Part shown: piece after piece, positions 42,887 to 49,755 of the stretch
Layout of the letters: every line of letters begins with the position of its first letter
Numbering within the stretch: position 1 is the first letter of the stretch
NCBI GenBank assembly: GCA_963798485.1
Contig: CAWCTR010000006.1
Span: 1 to 52,021 of the forward strand
DNA length: 52,021 nt
From: an uncultured delta proteobacterium
Lineage (GTDB): Bacteria; Desulfobacterota; Desulfomonilia; UBA1062
Reading direction: 5' to 3'
Notes under the pieces: model-generated
The model's input: only the letters and a program-made list of their open reading frames with translations
What the model was told of the DNA's origin: nothing
Database searches by the model: none
Program-made: the position numbers and the translations under genes

Positions 42887-42896
42887 CCCTACGGTT

Positions 42897-42969
42897 GCCG
42901 AGGTAGCTCAGTAGGTAGAGCAGAGGACTGAAAATCCTCGTGTCGGCGGTTCAACTCCGTCCCTCGGCA
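42897..42969 (+). tRNA. tRNA-Phe (GAA), CCA not encoded
   Basis: Cloverleaf GCCGAGG/CCTCGGC, D arm GCTC/GAGC, anticodon arm GAGGA-CTGAAAA-TCCTC, T arm GGCGG-TTCAACT-CCGTC. Confidence 0.98.
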
Positions 42970-42973
42970 TCAG
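42925..42973 (+). repeat. att site (tRNA-proximal), 49 bp
   Basis: GGACTGAAAATCCTCGTGTCGGCGGTTCAACTCCGTCCCTCGGCATCAG, identical to 48868-48916. Confidence 0.96.
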
Positions 42974-43029
42974 TCGCTGCCTTATTCTTCAGGGTTTTCA
43001 AGCTTCTTACAATATCCTTGAAGACAATA

Positions 43030-43051
43030 TTTTCTCCCACTACTCTCCCAC
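43030..43051 (+). repeat. Putative integrase arm-type sites (left)
   Basis: TTTTCTCCCAC-TACTCTCCCAC, matching TTCTATCCCAC x2 at 48681-48702. Confidence 0.65.
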
Positions 43052-43074
43052 TTATTTTTATTTTGCCTATATAA

Positions 43075-43119
43075 ACGAAAAGGGCAGGAAAACCTCGTGA
43101 GTCTTCCTGCCCTTTTCGT
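43075..43119. terminator. Bidirectional intrinsic terminator
   Basis: 16-bp perfect stem ACGAAAAGGGCAGGAA / TTCCTGCCCTTTTCGT between the tRNA and the convergent element genes. Confidence 0.8.
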
Positions 43120-43155
43120 CCTGGTAGGCTGCCGGGATAACAAACCTAAGCTTGA

Positions 43156-43344
43156 TCATTTGAAAATATATGCTTCCTTGCCCATGACTACGTTGGAACG
43201 CCGCACCAGCAACACATCAGAGCTTCCCGGTTCAAGGATGCAGAGATCACCGGTTGTCTTGTCCCGAAAAATATCCTGTGCCACATGCTGAAAGCCCCTT
43301 TCTCCAAGAACCTCATTACTGATTACTGACATCGTGAACGCCAT
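43156..43344 (-). CDS. Small hypothetical cargo protein (62 aa)
   Basis: Strong AAAGGAGG RBS, own promoter-like region upstream and a terminator downstream. Confidence 0.7.
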   Translation of the reverse strand: MAFTMSVISNEVLGERGFQHVAQDIFRDKTTGDLCILEPGSSDVLLVRRSNVVMGKEAYIFK

Positions 43345-43399
43345 GTGAACCTCCTTTAAATTTTTTCATTATGTATCATCATAAAAATGGTGGCGTCAA

Positions 43400-43444
43400 T
43401 AAGTAAGTGCTTGTTTTTGTTTATATTATCTAAGCACTTACTTA
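43400..43444. promoter_or_regulatory. 13-bp inverted repeat upstream of the 62-aa gene
   Basis: TAAGTAAGTGCTT-N19-AAGCACTTACTTA, abutting minus-strand TTGACG (43394-43399). Confidence 0.55.
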
Positions 43445-43461
43445 CTTATCCGTTGTCAACT

Positions 43462-44019
43462 CTAGGGCTCTTCGTCTCCGTCTCCCTCAACTTCATTGCG
43501 CACCAGCTCAATAAGTGCCTTCTGCCCCTCTTCATCTTCGATCAAATCAATCGGCAGGCCTACAAAATGGTTCCAGTCTGACACGGGTGCAAATTCTGAC
43601 GAAAGTCTGGCAATGTACTCGTCCGTTGATTCCCCTTCTAGGATCGGGTGTGTCTTCAGGTAAGCACAATACCAGTAACGATGGTAGAACTCGAAAAGAA
43701 GCCTCTGGCTCTCATCAGGGAAGCCATAGAAAAAGACCAATGGTTGCCCGTGGTGGACGCCGCTGGTGCTTCCCACGGCCTCATCAATGGCCTTATCAAG
43801 GGCGCTGTGCATCAAGCTCAACCCCGTCATCAGTCCTTTGTATCGGTCTGTGCTGATCCGCCCTTGTGCTGACAGGCGGGTTAGTTTGCTCATTACACCG
43901 AATATATCACCGTGTGTCTTGATTCGCAGACGTTTGAAGAAAGCCTCTTCTGAGAATGCTTTCCCCTTCGGTTTCGTCTTTCTCCCTGTTTTCGTCTTTA
44001 CTGCCGGAGCGCTTTCCAT
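43462..44019 (-). CDS. Hypothetical element protein (185 aa)
   Basis: GAGG RBS; basic N-terminus then a helical segment; co-oriented with the element genes. Confidence 0.7.
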   Translation of the reverse strand: MESAPAVKTKTGRKTKPKGKAFSEEAFFKRLRIKTHGDIFGVMSKLTRLSAQGRISTDRYKGLMTGLSLMHSALDKAIDEAVGSTSGVHHGQPLVFFYGFPDESQRLLFEFYHRYWYCAYLKTHPILEGESTDEYIARLSSEFAPVSDWNHFVGLPIDLIEDEEGQKALIELVRNEVEGDGDEEP

Positions 44020-44099
44020 GCTACTCTACCTCAATTCATCATACAAAAAGTGTCTCATAAATACCCTTATGGGTGCGAAAATTGGCAAAAAGTGAGCGG

Positions 44100-44459
44100 T
44101 TAGCCGCTCACCCCAAGCCTATTATAAATCTCGTCAACGATCCGAATGAGGGTTTTTGCCGCACTTTGGGACGGTGGTAGAAATATTTTTGTGACGGTCT
44201 TACTAATAACCGTCTCGGTTCCATCAGGAGCTATCACCTCAACAGTTTTGGTCACTGTGCGCTTCCTGTTGGGATTGCAAGCATCAAATATACAACCTAT
44301 GGCCCTGCCCTTGAGACGCTTCAAATCGGGCATTATAAGCGCCAATGCGGCCTGTTTCACCTGGGCCTGAATCTCTGCCGGTGTAAGTTTCTTCATCTTT
44401 ACCATCATTTTTTTCCTTTCAATTATGTGGGGGTGTGTAAGTATGGACATTTCACTCAC
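44100..44459 (-). CDS. Hypothetical protein, possibly terminase small subunit-like
   Basis: Beta-hairpin TVTKTVEV...KTVTKIFLPPSQSAA recalls the TerS-type VTKxxPPDxxA motif; start uncertain (possibly ~44407 or 44397). Confidence 0.5.
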   Translation of the reverse strand: MSEMSILTHPHIIERKKMMVKMKKLTPAEIQAQVKQAALALIMPDLKRLKGRAIGCIFDACNPNRKRTVTKTVEVIAPDGTETVISKTVTKIFLPPSQSAAKTLIRIVDEIYNRLGVSG

Positions 44460-44488
44460 ACACCCCCGGGCCGGGAGGCAGACTTTTA

Positions 44489-45308
44489 TTATGCGACTGC
44501 TAACCCTCTTTGGGCTGCCTTCTCAACGGCGCTCTGAGCTAGAGCTGGGTCGAGTTTGTCACTAGTTAAGGCCCGGAAAGACAGGGGCCGGATGTCACAC
44601 GTATTGTTTTTGTTATTTACGTACTCAAGCCTCGCCATTTCGCAGGTGATTCCACCAGGCATACCGGCATCGATCAAACATGATTTTGCATGATATAAGA
44701 CGTAACTGTAAGCATCCCTCAAAAGAGTGGTCAGGCGCACCGTCTGGACCTCTTCGGGGTGCCCCATCTCCGCCCGGAGCCGCTTCCCCTTTGTGATCGT
44801 CTCAGCATTTACAACCGGGTAAGCTTGAGGCGCCAGCTTCCACGGCTGCAACGAAAAGCGGATCACTGGCATCACCGCACTTTTCCAAATAAAGCCTGCG
44901 GATATCCCTTGCGGTCTTACTGTCCGTTATATTCGCCCTTAATAAATCACGGATTTCTTTTTGTGCCATGAAATCAACCATGGCGTTGCCGGTACTGAAT
45001 GGCCGCACAACAATCTTTGCCTGTACTTGGGCGATTGTGGATGTCGCCATATCGATTAAACCGCCCCCTAACTTCTCAATATCATTCCAGTATTTTACAA
45101 AATACTGGGCGAGGGATAACTGCTTGCCGGTTGGGCTCAACGTAGCATCCCACTGGGTTTGGGAAATAAATGCATCCAGTAAGCCCAAATCAGCCTTGAT
45201 GCCGGAGACAAGCTTTTTTACTTGGCCAGTATATGTGGCGTCTCCGCCTGCCTTGGTAAGCCGGTTAATCCCTAATTCTTGCGCCATGTCTAAACCACTG
45301 TAAATCAT
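44489..45308 (-). CDS. Hypothetical element protein (~272 aa), probably one gene split by a +1 frameshift at ~44833
   Basis: ORFs 44802-45308 and 44489-44875 overlap; deleting one G gives DPLFVAAVEAAPQAYPVV; AGGAG RBS at the 45308 start. Confidence 0.65.
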
Positions 45309-45326
45309 TGATATATCTCCTTTTAT

Positions 45327-45557
45327 TTAGTTTTTATTTGGTGTTGGAAATAATTGTTCAATGGGTACATCAAGAAAGCTGGCAACGAGCCGCTTCTGAG
45401 CTTCCCTGGGTATCAGAAACCCTCTCGCAATCAGAGATGCCTCGGAAATCGGCCTGCCAAGGGCCTCCGCAAACTGGACCATCGTTTTGCCTCGTTTTTT
45501 TAGCCAAAGTCGAACCAATGGGTAAGGCTTTGTCTTCTTCTTTGTTAGGTCTAACAC
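45327..45557 (-). CDS. XRE/Cro-like HTH protein
   Basis: LKKRGKTMVQFAEALG...IARG..P....RLVASFLDVPIEQLF pattern. Confidence 0.8.
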   Translation of the reverse strand: MLDLTKKKTKPYPLVRLWLKKRGKTMVQFAEALGRPISEASLIARGFLIPREAQKRLVASFLDVPIEQLFPTPNKN

Positions 45558-45865
45558 TGCTCACCCCCTTGGCCGGTTGTGGTGCTTTTCAAGGGAAAAA
45601 TAGCGTTCGGTACGGTGCTGGTGTGGCCTCCACACTTCTCGCCCTTGATCATGGAAGCCGGAAAGATTAAGTCTTCCGGTTGATTTAGATACCGGGCAAT
45701 CATCTTCCTGCAATTAGCGTCCTGTGGCACTGTATAGCCGTTCGCAATGCTGCTTACCCTGGAAAGCGACATACCCCAGTCAAAGGCCGCCTGGGTGAGA
45801 GTGATACCACCGAGTTTGAGAAGGTCTTTGATAATGCCAACAGCTTTGTTATGGATAACCGTCAT
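45551..45865 (-). CDS. XRE/Cro-like HTH protein
   Basis: GITLTQAAFDWGMSLSRVSSIANG..P.....KMIARYLNQPEDLIF pattern; GGAGG RBS. Confidence 0.8.
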   Translation of the reverse strand: MTVIHNKAVGIIKDLLKLGGITLTQAAFDWGMSLSRVSSIANGYTVPQDANCRKMIARYLNQPEDLIFPASMIKGEKCGGHTSTVPNAIFPLKSTTTGQGGEQC

Positions 45866-45867
45866 TG

Positions 45868-46341
45868 TTATACCTCCAAAAGTAGTTTTTTGCTTGTCTG
45901 TCCGAAAACGGGATGGAACATATCTTCACTGTAATTATTGACTGTCATGTACCTTACAAGCCCCTTAAGGTCGTCTATTTCCACAGCCTTAATGTTACCG
46001 GGCCATAACTGCGGGTTGCGCTCTTCAAAGCGCATATCGAAACGTCTATTATCCAGTAATGAGACTCCCTGCCTATCTTTTCCCCAAAGGAGAAGATGCA
46101 CGTGTATTCGTTTGCTCACTCCTGCGTCTGTGATTATTCCCCGATAGGCCAATTGCGCTTTGAGAGCCTTGGCCTGCCTCAATGCCCACTTATCAAGCTG
46201 GATAGCGGCCTTCTCAATGCTGCTGACCTTCAGCGTTGTGGAGAGAATGACATGATGAGTTGCAGGGCACTCAAGCAACCATTCAGCAATCCTATCCCTC
46301 GGTGCGCTTGCTGCCTCATCATTTGCCAGGTTGTTAATCAC
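45868..46341 (-). CDS. Putative minimal HUH endonuclease (rolling-circle Rep-like)
   Basis: Motif I-like HVILST, motif II HVHLLL, W-x-G, motif III-like LVRYMT; AAGGAG RBS. Confidence 0.55.
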   Translation of the reverse strand: MINNLANDEAASAPRDRIAEWLLECPATHHVILSTTLKVSSIEKAAIQLDKWALRQAKALKAQLAYRGIITDAGVSKRIHVHLLLWGKDRQGVSLLDNRRFDMRFEERNPQLWPGNIKAVEIDDLKGLVRYMTVNNYSEDMFHPVFGQTSKKLLLEV

Positions 46342-46465
46342 TTAATTACCATCTCCTTTCTGCCGCCCCTTTTACTCTTAGACCTTGGACTAAGGCCCCG
46401 TCTGTAGAACCGCTTAAAACCTCAATAATCTGTGAAACAAGCTGTTTAATAAATTGCCATCACAA

Positions 46466-46573
46466 AAGACCGGCATATAAGATACAGGTCTTACCGCCCG
46501 TGAACGGTACAGCCTGACATGGTAGGTAGCTCATGCTATCCATGGGAAATAGCGCCTGCCATGCTGTCAGCTG
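46466..46573. other. Hairpin cluster upstream of the HUH gene; candidate nick site/origin or RNA structure
   Basis: AAGACC-N15-GGTCTT (46466-46492) and a long hairpin CTGACA-TGGTAGG...GCTAT..ATAGC..CCTGCCA..TGTCAG (46510-46573). Confidence 0.45.
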
Positions 46574-46982
46574 ACTTGTGATCGTGATCAATACTTTCAT
46601 GTTTCAGCCTTTATTCTTCATCTTCGTGCTGCCCCTCTATATAAAGTGTTTTTTACGACACTTTATACTTGAATATACCACGTTGATTGACTTTACGTGC
46701 AGGTTTCCAAGGGATTTTGATATGCTATTATTAGACCTAATTACTATAATTACTTAGGGGTGTTTTACATGGCAAAATTTGATGATACTGGGAGAATAGT
46801 GGGATAATTCAGGCTGCCGGAATGGTTAGGGGCTTTTATTGTATCTATATGTAGCTAATTAATTTAGTGTTTTTTTGATTTAGAGGTCCCCCAACACGGG
46901 GATATTAAATCCCCTTATCATTTTCTCCGTTGCCAGCCCTATAGGCTCATTTGATCGAAGGTAGTGTTTTCGCCGTTAGCCA

Positions 46983-47252
46983 CTATGATGATATTTTCGC
47001 ACACAGGAAGACTTGTCCCTCTTCGGGCTGGCCAGTTACAGGCGTGGTTTTACTGTCCAACCAAAAAATTAAATCATCAATCGGATAGGCCACGTCTCTT
47101 CCAACCCTGATAGCTCCTCGTGGGCCTTGATGCAAAACATCCATATTCGCCATGTGTCCGATCGTAAAGAGGCCGCCTGTGAAATCGGAAATCTTTTTAC
47201 GGGCAACCCACACGGACGGCCATTTCGTAGCCTGCTTTGACCATGGCGACAT
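46983..47252 (-). CDS. Excisionase/AlpA-like winged-helix DNA-binding protein
   Basis: Start MSPWSK with GGAG RBS just after int; MANMD...GP...RVGRDVAYPIDDLIFWL pattern. Confidence 0.75.
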   Translation of the reverse strand: MSPWSKQATKWPSVWVARKKISDFTGGLFTIGHMANMDVLHQGPRGAIRVGRDVAYPIDDLIFWLDSKTTPVTGQPEEGQVFLCAKISS

Positions 47253-47262
47253 TTTATTGCTC

Positions 47263-48666
47263 CTAGCCACTGAATACCTCCCCCGTTGCCCTGTGGTCAT
47301 CAAGGGAGATAATGTTGCTGGCTGGTTGGGCCTCCACATGGCTGTCCATCTCTTCAAATATCCTAGTCTTCTGCCTTCGGGTTTCATCGGAAGTATGGGC
47401 ATATCGTGCCGCCATTGATAGAGTCTTTTGTCCTAAAGCCTCAGCAATAAGGTTTATGGGGATTCCTTCATTAGATAGCCAGCTTGCATGTGTATGCCTC
47501 AAGGAATGAAAGACAACCTTATCTCTCCGGTCAGTGTGTCCATTGTTAAGGCCCAAAGCGTCAACGACCCTCGGAAAGAGATTACTGATTTTCCCAATAT
47601 GCTTGGGTTCCCTGGTTCCTGTGGCATCTCGGTGCGCTTCACGGCTTTCAAACACTGGATCTTTAGGGTCACCCGCCTTCTTGCTTGCCAGCATTTCCTT
47701 AAGCCGCCGGGTTGTTATATCTGCATAGCGGCTCACGTTGTTCTTTGGATTTCTGATAAAGATACGGTCATTATCAAGGTCAAGATCACTCTTCATCAGG
47801 GCAAATATTTCGCCGGCCCTCATACCCGTGTATAGACTCAATAGACTTATTTCATAAGTTATCATGCTGTGCTCTTTAAGAGCATTGAGAAGCTTCTCAG
47901 CCTCATCTTTAGAGAGAAACCGCATACGCCTGTTATTAATTATTGGAGGCTTGACCCCCCTGACAGGAGATTCACCAGTAAAGACCTTATGTGCACGGGC
48001 ACTATTGAAGACTTGCCGGACAACATTCAAAGCGTATTGAATTGACCGTGGGGCGGCTGGCTTATGGGCCGGATTGTGCTTGCTGCCCATGGTGCTCTTT
48101 ATTCTCTGCAAGTCTATGATAGATATATCCTTGAAGGTCTTGGAGCCGATTATGGGCCTTATATAACGCTGGTACAGGGCCTTTTCACGCCTGACAGTAA
48201 CCGCACTCCTTCGGTCACGTGCGACCGTTGGGAAATACACTAATTTCCAGAAGTCATCAAAGGTCTGCGATTCAAGAGCTTCCCGCTCCTTGCGCTCATC
48301 CGCTGCCCTTTTCTTCTCATCCGCCGCTTCACGTTGTTCTTTAAGTGTCTTGAATCCCTGACCGGTACTATTATTGACCTTGAGTTCACCAAGCGTTTTT
48401 ATAACCTTGTCTATAGTCCAGCCACCAGACTTCCAGCCGCATGCCTCTTCAATTATACGGCCACCACTTTGATACCGTATTAAATAATATCGGTCATAGT
48501 GCCCCTTGTATTTTCTGGAAGGATGTTCCCGATAGGATATGCCCCTGTACTCAGTTGTGATCCTCTTAGGATTTAAGCGCTTCTGTGGGCGCTCATCTGG
48601 TGTTCCCGATAGCTTCACTAAAACGTTGTCAACATTTTTTCTTTTCTTATTAATTACTTGCGCCAT
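47263..48666 (-). CDS. int: Tyrosine recombinase / site-specific integrase
   Basis: TGMRAGEI, PKN, FHSLRHT, LGQ (variant of LGH) and RYAH motifs; N-terminal arm-binding region; alternative start 48681. Confidence 0.96.
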   Translation of the reverse strand: MAQVINKKRKNVDNVLVKLSGTPDERPQKRLNPKRITTEYRGISYREHPSRKYKGHYDRYYLIRYQSGGRIIEEACGWKSGGWTIDKVIKTLGELKVNNSTGQGFKTLKEQREAADEKKRAADERKEREALESQTFDDFWKLVYFPTVARDRRSAVTVRREKALYQRYIRPIIGSKTFKDISIIDLQRIKSTMGSKHNPAHKPAAPRSIQYALNVVRQVFNSARAHKVFTGESPVRGVKPPIINNRRMRFLSKDEAEKLLNALKEHSMITYEISLLSLYTGMRAGEIFALMKSDLDLDNDRIFIRNPKNNVSRYADITTRRLKEMLASKKAGDPKDPVFESREAHRDATGTREPKHIGKISNLFPRVVDALGLNNGHTDRRDKVVFHSLRHTHASWLSNEGIPINLIAEALGQKTLSMAARYAHTSDETRRQKTRIFEEMDSHVEAQPASNIISLDDHRATGEVFSG

Positions 48667-48680
48667 ATTCACCCCCGTCA

Positions 48681-48702
48681 TTCTATCCCACTTCTATCCC
48701 AC
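48681..48702 (+). repeat. Putative integrase arm-type sites (right)
   Basis: TTCTATCCCAC tandem x2. Confidence 0.65.
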
Positions 48703-48752
48703 CTATTTGATAGGATGTCAAGTAGATTCGATGAGGGTTAATGAACCTTCTC

Positions 48753-48793
48753 TCTTAATCGTTGTCAACATATTTTCTTAATCGTTGTCAACA
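48753..48793 (+). repeat. 18-bp direct repeat TCTTAATCGTTGTCAACA x2
   Basis: Copies at 48753-48770 and 48776-48793; core CGTTGTCAAC also at 48624 and 43451. Confidence 0.75.
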
Positions 48794-48867
48794 CTTATAT
48801 GACCTTGAGGGTGTTCATAAAGCGTGCGCCTTGGAATGCTCAGAAAAGTCGTTTATTGGTATAAAAC

Positions 48868-48916
48868 GGACTGAAAATCCTCGTGTCGGCGGTTCAACTC
48901 CGTCCCTCGGCATCAG
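48868..48916 (+). repeat. att site (tRNA-distal), duplicated 3' part of tRNA-Phe
   Basis: Identical to 42925-42973; lacks the 5' part of the tRNA. Confidence 0.96.
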
Positions 48917-49068
48917 GTTTTAAGCCTTTCGGTAATAATCCTCTAAGATGAACCTTTCTAACGGATATTTTCTTTTTCTTCTTGACAGGCAAGTGCTTCA
49001 GAATATATCTTAATCATAGCTTAGTATTTTTGATTCATTCTTATTACAATATATTTTTATGGGGTTTC

Positions 49069-49755
49069 ATGACTGCGATGGCTACCTCCATTGAAGAACG
49101 CAAGGCCGAGACCCGGGAGATGATCGTACAGGCGGCCAGCAGGGTCTTCTCGGAAAAGGGTTATCATAAGGCCCAGATCGCGGATATCGTCAGGGTTGCC
49201 GGTATATCCACAGGCAGCATATACGCCCATTTCAAGGACAAGCGCGACCTGTTCGAACAAATAATTCGAGAGACCAATGAGGTCCTGAGGGCCAGGCTCA
49301 AGGAACTCAGCCAGACCAAACGGCCCGATGATATCCGTGAACGCGTGCAGCAGTGGATGCCGGCCTATGTCGCCTTCTTCGATTTCGTGGAGGCAAACCC
49401 GGAACAGATCCTCCTCATCGTGAGAGGCGGGTTCGGGGTGGATGAAGAGAATGATATGTTTACCTGGGAGTTATTCAAAGCCTTTGCCTCGGACATAGCC
49501 GAAGACTTCCGCAAGTGGGAGGAGCTGGGTTTCATAAAGGGTGTCAATGCTGCTCTCATGGGACATATCATCATCGGCATGTGTCTCCATGTAGCCATGA
49601 GTTATTTATTGGACAGGCAGTTCACCCGGGAAGAGGCAATTAATCATCTCATAGCACTGACCCACGGCATGGTCTCCATGTATCTGACCGACAAGGGGAG
49701 AACCGAGCTCGGGGACCTGAACGTGCCCAGGCTTCCGGACGATGAGGTATCATAG
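49069..49755 (+). CDS. TetR/AcrR family regulator
   Basis: VFSEKGYHKAQIADIV..AGISTGSIYAHFKDKRDLF; TTGACA at 48982 upstream. Confidence 0.92.
   Translation: MTAMATSIEERKAETREMIVQAASRVFSEKGYHKAQIADIVRVAGISTGSIYAHFKDKRDLFEQIIRETNEVLRARLKELSQTKRPDDIRERVQQWMPAYVAFFDFVEANPEQILLIVRGGFGVDEENDMFTWELFKAFASDIAEDFRKWEELGFIKGVNAALMGHIIIGMCLHVAMSYLLDRQFTREEAINHLIALTHGMVSMYLTDKGRTELGDLNVPRLPDDEVS

Follow-up and report, generated by a model that had tools for sequence, protein, structure and literature searches.

For many genomic islands, the route by which they are transferred is not known. Here we describe a compact island in a 52,021-nt stretch of contig CAWCTR010000006.1 (assembly GCA_963798485.1, from an uncultured delta proteobacterium), which we refer to as the window and which belongs to a draft genome of 32 contigs that is 97.5% complete. 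The island brings together an integrase of its own, a stand-alone HUH (Rep-like) endonuclease of 157 residues and conserved orphan genes. Our preferred interpretation, held with slightly better than even confidence, is that it is an integrative rolling-circle replicon similar to integrative and mobilizable elements (IMEs) and to the integrative and conjugative elements of actinomycetes (AICEs), one that replicates and/or is mobilized by means of a minimal HUH initiator.

The window contains, according to ARAGORN, a single tRNA gene, tRNA-Phe(GAA) (42896-42971, plus strand; 71.6 bits with the Rfam tRNA model), and this gene is the integration target. A 49-nt direct repeat, formed by the 47 nt at the 3′ end of tRNA-Phe and 2 further nt, is present at 42925-42973 (attL) and again at 48868-48916 (attR), the two copies being 100% identical; the tRNA gene stays intact at the left junction, and the right-hand copy is a 3′ tRNA fragment that gives a partial, sub-threshold tRNA match of 23.5 bits. 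Because the repeat consists of the 3′ part of the tRNA gene plus 2 nt, it is no chance repeat but a classical att duplication, such as site-specific integration at tRNA genes leaves behind. The 5.9 kb enclosed by the two copies have all their credible open reading frames (ORFs) on the minus strand. An earlier inspection of the letters, which we call the sequence-only reading, had described perfect 49-bp att repeats at tRNA-Phe and a unidirectional order of genes, and both descriptions hold: the genes that it listed are all on the minus strand and are found in the order given. In other words, this is a discrete, well-bounded, tRNA-integrated element, equipped with the integrase and att sites of its own that are expected of an IME.

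Genes between the att repeats

Read along the minus strand, the element begins with a tyrosine integrase gene, int (47263-48681; 472 aa; PF00589 at E 1.9e-28 and phrog_1 at E 6.2e-53). An 89-aa ORF follows (46983-47252, minus strand), its ATG at 47252 lying 11 nt past the int stop; by position it is a possible excisionase or helix-turn-helix (HTH) protein. The name "xis-like" given to it previously reflects that position rather than a family, as no family is matched even at E≤1 and the ORF has no PDB match, no AlpA-family match and no homolog in the related elements described below. After a 640-nt non-coding gap (46342-46982) comes the gene for the HUH protein (rep; 45868-46341, minus strand), which carries His80-x-His82 in the motif H-V-H-L-L-L as well as Tyr131.

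Downstream of rep are two genes for XRE-type HTH regulators. The first (45551-45865, minus strand; 104 aa) matches HTH_3 at E 5.9e-5, its 23.5 bits standing just over the cut-off of 23, and it has homologs in two related elements, G008 and L010. The second (45327-45557, minus strand; 76 aa) has sub-cut-off matches to HTH_35 (E 1e-3) and HTH_3 (E 0.05) and matches PHROG repressor families at E 3e-3 or weaker; a homolog in L010 is 46% identical to it. The next gene had been listed as an ORF of about 272 aa, which does not exist in the window. Instead, a conserved core gene of ~279 codons (44489-45308, minus strand) is split into two overlapping ORFs, 44802-45308 (168 aa) and 44489-44875 (128 aa), one corresponding to the N-terminal and the other to the C-terminal part of a 279-aa protein that G008 encodes without interruption. 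The frame switches between 44838 and 44833 through a 1-nt frameshift, one extra base in GCTGGCGCC; elsewhere the gene is intact, with a 279-aa product in G008 and one of 278 aa in P0003. A word-based search finds two database relatives of the 279-aa protein; its predicted structure is mostly helical and, at a predicted local distance difference test score (pLDDT) of 54.3, unusable.

Two further genes complete the larger part of the inventory. The 185-aa conserved orphan (43462-44019, minus strand) belongs to the core module, with homologs in G008 (26% identity, E 1e-14) and in the metagenome fragment L011 (40% over 77 aa), and a word-based search of 5.8 billion proteins returned it alone, with no usable match in the embedding-based Atlas. 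The 119-aa ORF (44100-44459, minus strand) is accessory, being absent from the related elements, and is one of the genes that had been called "TerS-like". No match to it was found in Pfam, PHROGs, NCBIfam, PADLOC or PDB sequences, and the nearest of its Atlas clusters with a Pfam family carry DUF5681 (0.85) and Terminase_2 (0.85, 18% of members), scores below the tool's own level of 0.9 and flagged by it as often due to chance. The "TerS-like" genes are thus left with no support from hidden Markov models and with one sub-threshold embedding neighbour; because the label is unsupported, so is the redirection of helper-phage packaging that had been built on it, for which no core gene offers a terminase, capsid or PHROG match.

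What the element lacks had been described correctly. Across Pfam, PHROGs and NCBIfam, the three collections against which negative family results below are also given unless stated otherwise, no ORF of the element matched a primase, capsid, terminase or type IV secretion system (T4SS) family, in agreement with the earlier claim that primase, capsid and T4SS are missing. PADLOC gave two marginal matches alone (DpdF, E 0.0032; JukA, E 0.0091). On our preferred interpretation, the core of the element, i.e. the HUH nuclease, the two XRE regulators and the conserved orphans of ~279 and ~185 aa, is not phage-derived.

A family of small HUH proteins

A word-based homolog search with the HUH protein returned the query alone. 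A profile built from three sequences (the window protein, a paralog from the same genome and a homolog from a congener) and run with HMMER against 1.84 billion representatives recovered 122 cluster representatives at E≤1e-3; 31 also pass E≤1e-10. Nearly all of these (119/122) are 85-260 aa long, and therefore the HUH protein is a stand-alone protein and no fragment of a larger Rep. In an alignment of 60 members, His82 and Tyr131 are invariant, and His80, Trp52, Gly68, Trp113 and Asn136 are each at least 90% conserved. When these 60 members were compared with Pfam at E≤0.1, with 20 families among the matches listed, PF23343 (REP_ORF2-G2P) was matched by 29 (best E 6.6e-6), Rep_1 by 4 and Relaxase by 2. 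Current annotation is silent on the members that were sampled: ten representatives, found on contigs of 1-17 kb, are without exception unnamed or called "hypothetical protein".

The predicted structure points in the same direction. An AlphaFold (AF2) model of the window protein (pLDDT 88.4; predicted template modelling score, pTM, 0.83) places His80-V-His82 on a strand (79-89) and Tyr131 in a helix (125-135). Among 48,161 PDB chains the best match to this model is SIRV1 ORF119 (Z 8.6, root-mean-square deviation 3.4, 103 aa), followed by AAV5 Rep (Z 6.8), Helitron (6.2) and Vientovirus Rep (6.2); in Foldseek, the PDB list is headed by AAV2 Rep (E 0.03, probability 0.92), WDV Rep and RepB. Against the predicted viral structures of BFVD there are 29 matches at E≤1e-3, and among the 50 matches listed all seven named rows are replication proteins, including a microvirus initiator and VP4. 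SIRV1 ORF119 (PDB 2x3g), the minimal Rep of a rudivirus, is like the window protein a single domain of ~120-160 aa without a helicase domain, and 103 of its 116 residues are matched, at 16% identity and a profile E of 0.9; it differs in being an archaeal virus protein that replicates a linear double-stranded DNA virus. The features that define the HUH superfamily, namely an H-hydrophobic-H motif on a strand, a Tyr on a helix and a Rep-like fold, are thus all present in the model, and by family conservation and predicted fold the 157-aa protein is an HUH (Rep-like) nuclease. The sequence-only reading had proposed as much, and the proposal is upheld by the invariant His82 and Tyr131 and by a confident model whose nearest neighbours are Rep proteins; the comparison with known and predicted structures did not break it.

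We also note a second HUH protein in this genome, the 166-aa paralog L004 (G000:C14:140620-141120), which lies amid IS-type transposase genes and near a serine recombinase gene, with no tRNA or tyrosine integrase gene within 18 kb.

Related elements and the non-coding gap

The rep module recurs beyond the window. In a genome of the same genus, G008, a 6.9-kb element sits at tRNA-Met between 56-nt repeats (93%), with the gene order gap-rep-XRE-XRE-279-181-181-...-serine recombinase-121-int. Another congener, G011, has a 12.5-kb element at tRNA-Lys (L012, G011:C32, 12-12617) with perfect 44-nt repeats; it combines a homolog of rep with a different integrase and with other cargo. In G339, from another family of the phylum, a contig fragment carries a tyrosine integrase gene, a gap of ~770 nt and rep, all on one strand as in the window, and two metagenome fragments show the orders gap-rep-XRE-XRE-279 (L010) and rep-74-106-197 (L011). 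Syntenic relatives therefore exist, and the possibility raised in the sequence-only reading, that none would be found and that the proposal would fall, did not come about. The integrases of the window and G008 have no reciprocal match, each matching the G011 integrase alone (23% and 27% identity); because the integrases are so dissimilar among the elements, what recurs is the rep module, joined to differing integration modules. Few genomes carry the family: counting this one, it occurs in 3 of the 122 from the class and in 5 of the 401 from the phylum, and a scan of genome contigs with the Rep alignment found none. A tblastn search with Rep found nothing among plasmids.

Two side observations concern the cargo of the relatives. 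The G011 element carries a 240-aa protein with a weak PHROG match to HNH endonucleases, a pair of proteins that look secreted or peptidase-like, and a repeat protein of 874 aa. Additionally, an orphan that is not found in the window accompanies the rep module in two elements (L011, 3415-4008, 197 aa; L005, 11966-12511, 181 aa; 29% identical).

In a genome of the phylum, a contig of 1,224 bp (L055; G350:C217, 1-1224) ends in a 55-nt terminal overlap, which suggests a circle of 1,169 bp. Its two ORFs encode a 158-aa member of the HUH family (hhalign probability 98.5%), with the motifs FATLTF, HLHLLMG and YYLTKY, and one Lys/Glu-rich protein. This contig may be a minimal rolling-circle replicon and, if the putative circle is real, it argues that the HUH family protein is a replication initiator.

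Where in the element might such an initiator act? The 640-nt gap had been credited with hairpins, which we do not find: it holds no inverted repeat of at least 12 nt and one stem-loop of 6 bp (46898-46914), and the fold of 46370-46610 is no better than that of shuffled sequences (z -0.12 and -0.91). It does hold a conserved non-coding block of ~200 nt upstream of rep (46387-46583, minus strand), a candidate origin or structured element. The block is 78.6% identical between the window and L010 over 210 nt, the rep coding sequences of the two aligning as DNA over 148 nt at 73% and their Rep proteins being 53% identical; it is partly kept in L011 and matches no Rfam family. Upstream of the block lies an iteron-like unit (46614-46660, minus strand) that contains TATATAGAGGG (46633-46643). 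The unit, with TATATAGAG(R)G, is present in a single copy in the window; its core occurs twice in G008, 131 nt apart, and L010 has at least three copies of an iteron-like repeat of ~46-70 nt, the exact motif being absent from the remaining loci compared. From their sequence, the block and the iteron-like unit together appear origin-like.

Two further leads from the block were considered and set aside. Pattern matches to its DNA in a contig of a metagenome-assembled Chitinophagaceae genome and in a viral contig lie inside coding genes and are chance. A 46-aa ORF (46460-46600, minus strand) overlies the block and has an in-frame counterpart in L010, and a conserved peptide is judged the less likely, as ~7 of 9 differences between the window and L010 in the best-conserved stretch change the residue; the conservation over this ORF looks to be at the nucleic-acid level rather than that of the peptide.

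The near-palindromic 10-mer CGTTGTCAAC occurs at four sites in the 52 kb, all of them within the element (0.03 expected): one near the left end (43451-43460) and three around the int start, at 48624, 48760 and 48783 (48624-48792). These are candidate operator or arm sites.

A proposed integrative rolling-circle replicon and its alternatives

From the observed att repeats, integrase family, HUH family and fold, synteny and conserved non-coding features, we infer the following course of excision, nicking at an origin, replication, mobilization and regulation. The element's own tyrosine recombinase would insert it into the 3′ end of tRNA-Phe, and the same Int would excise a circle by recombining the 49-nt repeats, possibly helped by the 89-aa ORF acting as directionality factor. 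The HUH protein would nick one strand at an origin within the 640-nt gap, where the iteron-like unit and the conserved block lie; it would stay linked to the DNA via Tyr131 and prime rolling-circle replication of the circle. By analogy with the rolling-circle-initiator relaxases of IMEs and integrative and conjugative elements (ICEs), the same protein may pass the strand to the conjugative pore of a helper. The XRE pair and the CGTTGTCAAC sites would set the switch.

Transfer by such a scheme would need a helper, and the host genome offers a candidate. Contig C4 (G000:C4:272000-283000; L053, L054) encodes VirB11, TrwB/VirD4, a TraF peptidase, TrbI, CagX, VirB8 and TrbL, with VirB4 nearby; expressed as VirB components, the cluster comprises VirB4, VirD4/TrwB, VirB6, B8, B9, B10, B11 and TraF. 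By its gene content this is a complete VirB-type T4SS, and it is the most concrete helper candidate.

How does the element compare with systems that are already characterized? AICEs such as pSAM2 are integrated at tRNA genes, are ~10 kb in size, carry int and xis beside a rolling-circle rep gene and replicate after excision. The window element is likewise tRNA-integrated and has int, an xis-like ORF and rep. It differs from pSAM2 in its phylum and in the absence of FtsK-like Tra or spread genes, no FtsK or Tra family being matched by any ORF of the element in Pfam or NCBIfam, and in the absence of these genes it is not self-transmissible; its Rep is presumably about one-third the size of RepSA from pSAM2. 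IMEs of streptococci provide the second comparison. In the excerpts of PMC5704250 and PMC5357655 that we draw on, 118 of 144 streptococcal IMEs have relaxases that are relatives of rolling-circle initiators (MobT/Rep_trans, Rep_2, Viral_Rep and PHA00330), and these IMEs are compact, have a relaxase-xis-int layout and usually encode a TcpA coupling protein (83/118); MobT is described there as both relaxase and replication initiator. The sequence-only reading had discounted the IMEs on the premise that their relaxases are usually much larger than 157 aa, a premise that overlooks the IMEs in these excerpts that use rolling-circle initiators.

Measured against the same excerpts, the window element shares a good deal with such IMEs: a small, compact, att-bounded body of the kind often found in tRNA or ribosomal-protein genes, a tyrosine integrase beside a small excisionase-type gene, a rolling-circle-initiator-type HUH protein as the sole DNA-processing enzyme and the need for a helper in transfer. 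As for the relaxase by which an IME is recognized, an HUH Rep-like protein is present, and 2 of its 60 relatives touch Pfam Relaxase. The window element differs from these IMEs, as the excerpts describe them, in its order (int-xis-gap-rep rather than relaxase-xis-int) and in having no TcpA; moreover, its HUH protein belongs to a separate, unannotated family of ~160 aa that lies under Pfam cut-offs, and its remaining core genes are orphans. The element thus resembles IMEs and AICEs, and nothing that was found ties it to phage packaging.

Several results weigh against reading the element as an IME- or AICE-like rolling-circle replicon, and we collect them here. As regards the HUH protein, the window sequence is below the gathering cut-off of PF23343 (16 bits, E 0.015, against 27.8 bits), as is its G008 homolog (18.3 bits); chains of the ferredoxin-like ribosomal protein S6 also reach Z ~6 with the model; Foldseek finds nothing in the PDB at E≤1e-3; and the family profile reaches E 0.9 at best against PDB sequences, again with SIRV1 ORF119. 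As regards an origin, no nick site, hairpin or oriT is defined in the element, no motif is common to at least four of the six rep-upstream regions compared, and covariation in the block is weak, its consensus fold from three sequences having an unfavourable covariation term of +1.34. The circularity of L055 is based on its terminal overlap alone. As regards transfer, no coupling protein and no mobilization protein beyond the HUH protein was matched in the element, and the IMEs with rolling-circle-type relaxases are reported, in the parts of that literature used here, with TcpA-type rather than VirD4 coupling, the T4SS on C4 being of the TrwB/VirD4 type. Finally, no clean empty site is found among the congener loci compared, and this copy of the element may be impaired, judging from the frameshift in its conserved ~279-aa core gene.

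The alternative that survives best is that this is a cryptic, decaying island that integrated once, is no longer mobile and has genes that are remnants or co-opted. We regard it as unlikely. Besides the frameshift, the rarity of the family (3/122 and 5/401 genomes, as above) fits this alternative, as do the absence of an identical or near-identical conserved block in 60 relatives and a right flank that is rearranged relative to congeners. In G007, tRNA-Phe is directly followed by a UDP-glucose dehydrogenase gene; in the present genome, the UDP-glucose 6-dehydrogenase ortholog (94% identical) is found elsewhere, on contig C17 (G000:C17:264552-265874), and attR is followed from 48917 by TetR and acyl-CoA dehydrogenase genes, a flank that is not beside tRNA-Phe in any of 9 congener loci. 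This difference reflects either rearrangement of the genome or a join made by the assembly at the att site, and it is because the right flank of tRNA-Phe is rearranged in this genome that a clean empty site is missing. Against decay, the 49-nt repeats are still 100% identical, and the genes for Int (472 aa), Rep (157 aa), both XRE regulators and the 185-aa protein are open and full length relative to their homologs, and a single 1-nt indel in a 32-contig draft may be an assembly error. The perfect repeats together with intact int and rep argue for recent activity, as far as sequence can tell, and decay would in any case concern the state of this copy and not the nature of the element.

A second alternative accepts the HUH protein and denies that it is a replication initiator: it might instead work as a dedicated relaxase or else as a transposase or recombinase of single strands, of the IS200/IS605-TnpA/RAYT type. 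This we find rather improbable. A single small HUH domain is indeed what Y1 transposases have, 2 of the 60 family members touch Pfam Relaxase, chains of IS608 TnpA turn up far down the Foldseek list (probability 0.11-0.13), and the L004 paralog sits amid IS elements away from any tRNA or tyrosine integrase gene. Yet the Pfam listing for the 60 members (20 families, E≤0.1) contains no transposase family, and in it the PF23343 Rep family accounts for 29 members and Rep_1 for 4; the top structural neighbours are replication proteins; the putative 1.17-kb circle has the HUH protein as one of just two ORFs; and the flanking sub-terminal hairpins typical of IS200/IS605 were not seen.

A third alternative is that the element is a phage satellite, induced by a helper, replicated by rolling circle and packaged in helper capsids, with the 119-aa and/or 185-aa proteins as small-terminase-like factors. 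What it has in common with satellites at large is its size, its place in a tRNA gene, its int and XRE regulators, the absence of structural genes and the large number of orphans; Rep proteins of single-stranded DNA phages make up most of the HUH protein's structural neighbours, and the sub-threshold Atlas clusters with DUF5681 and Terminase_2 nearest to the 119-aa ORF also speak for it. Phage-inducible chromosomal islands (PICIs), P4 and PICI-like elements (PLEs) are marked by a gene for redirecting packaging or the capsid (terS, ppi, cpm, sid, psu) or by pri-rep, and no ORF here matches any of these hallmark genes. [quoted passage not shown] The window element is like these PICMIs in its ~6 kb, in having int, a small DNA-binding gene and a replication gene, in its large non-coding stretches and in the lack of structural genes; measured by that definition, it differs in having int with no AlpA match at E≤1, no ORF that matches a primase family, no fis target and no sign of a helper phage, its replication protein being an HUH nuclease and not a primase. 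The sequence-only reading was right that the architecture fits no named satellite family (judging PICI, P4 and PLE by the hallmarks generally known for them and PICMI by the excerpt of PMC10803314); its candidate satellite family becomes a minority view.

We judge this third alternative rather improbable as well, given that no terminase, capsid, portal or hallmark match is present among the scanned ORFs of the element, G008, G011 and L011, that the 119-aa ORF whose sub-threshold Atlas neighbours include Terminase_2 is in none of the related elements and the 185-aa ORF has no Atlas match at all, that 2.9 million viral contigs contain no relative of the 279-aa protein or of the Rep profile and 50,697 phage records no tblastn match to Rep, and that, of the four families looked for in the element's own genome, the three of tailed phages (Terminase_6N, TerL_ATPase and HK97 capsid) and Zot all went unmatched.

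If the element is indeed an IME- or AICE-like replicon built around an HUH initiator, then a bare HUH nuclease of ~160 aa plus an integrase suffices to define a class of hitchhiking elements outside the Firmicutes. More tentatively, and as a possibility that we would put well short of even, the family may be an unrecognized lineage of minimal single-domain HUH initiators that spans two-gene circles of ~1.2 kb and tRNA-integrated elements of 6-12 kb, with the rep-XRE-XRE-279-185 orphan module as a new type of hitchhiking replicon, with a helper (conjugative or viral) and a transfer route unlike those of the named IME and satellite families, and with the ~200-nt block as a new structured origin or RNA. 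The element, with one small nuclease and a 640-nt non-coding region, is a compact system that could reveal how an excised form is kept up in integrative elements and passed to a helper, and the HUH family profile could be used to find more such elements in metagenomes.

Several minor features complete the description of the locus. At the distal end of the gene array is a 62-aa orphan ORF (43156-43344, minus strand), which has a strong AAAGGAGG ribosome-binding site and no family match in Pfam, PHROGs, NCBIfam or PADLOC. Past this last gene, a stem-loop with 19-nt arms that are 95% complementary (43075-43119, minus strand) is terminator-like and may serve as such. Outside the element, G007 and G003 (L044/L045) both have tRNA-Phe followed by UDP-glucose 6-dehydrogenase, and the window differs from them at 48917-49092. 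In G003 (L045, G003:C9), two copies of the att core (366-415 and 1590-1639) are 1.2 kb apart with small ORFs between them; the second copy is perhaps a remnant, perhaps a tiny element at the tRNA-Phe site, and its presence points to this site as a hotspot in the genus.

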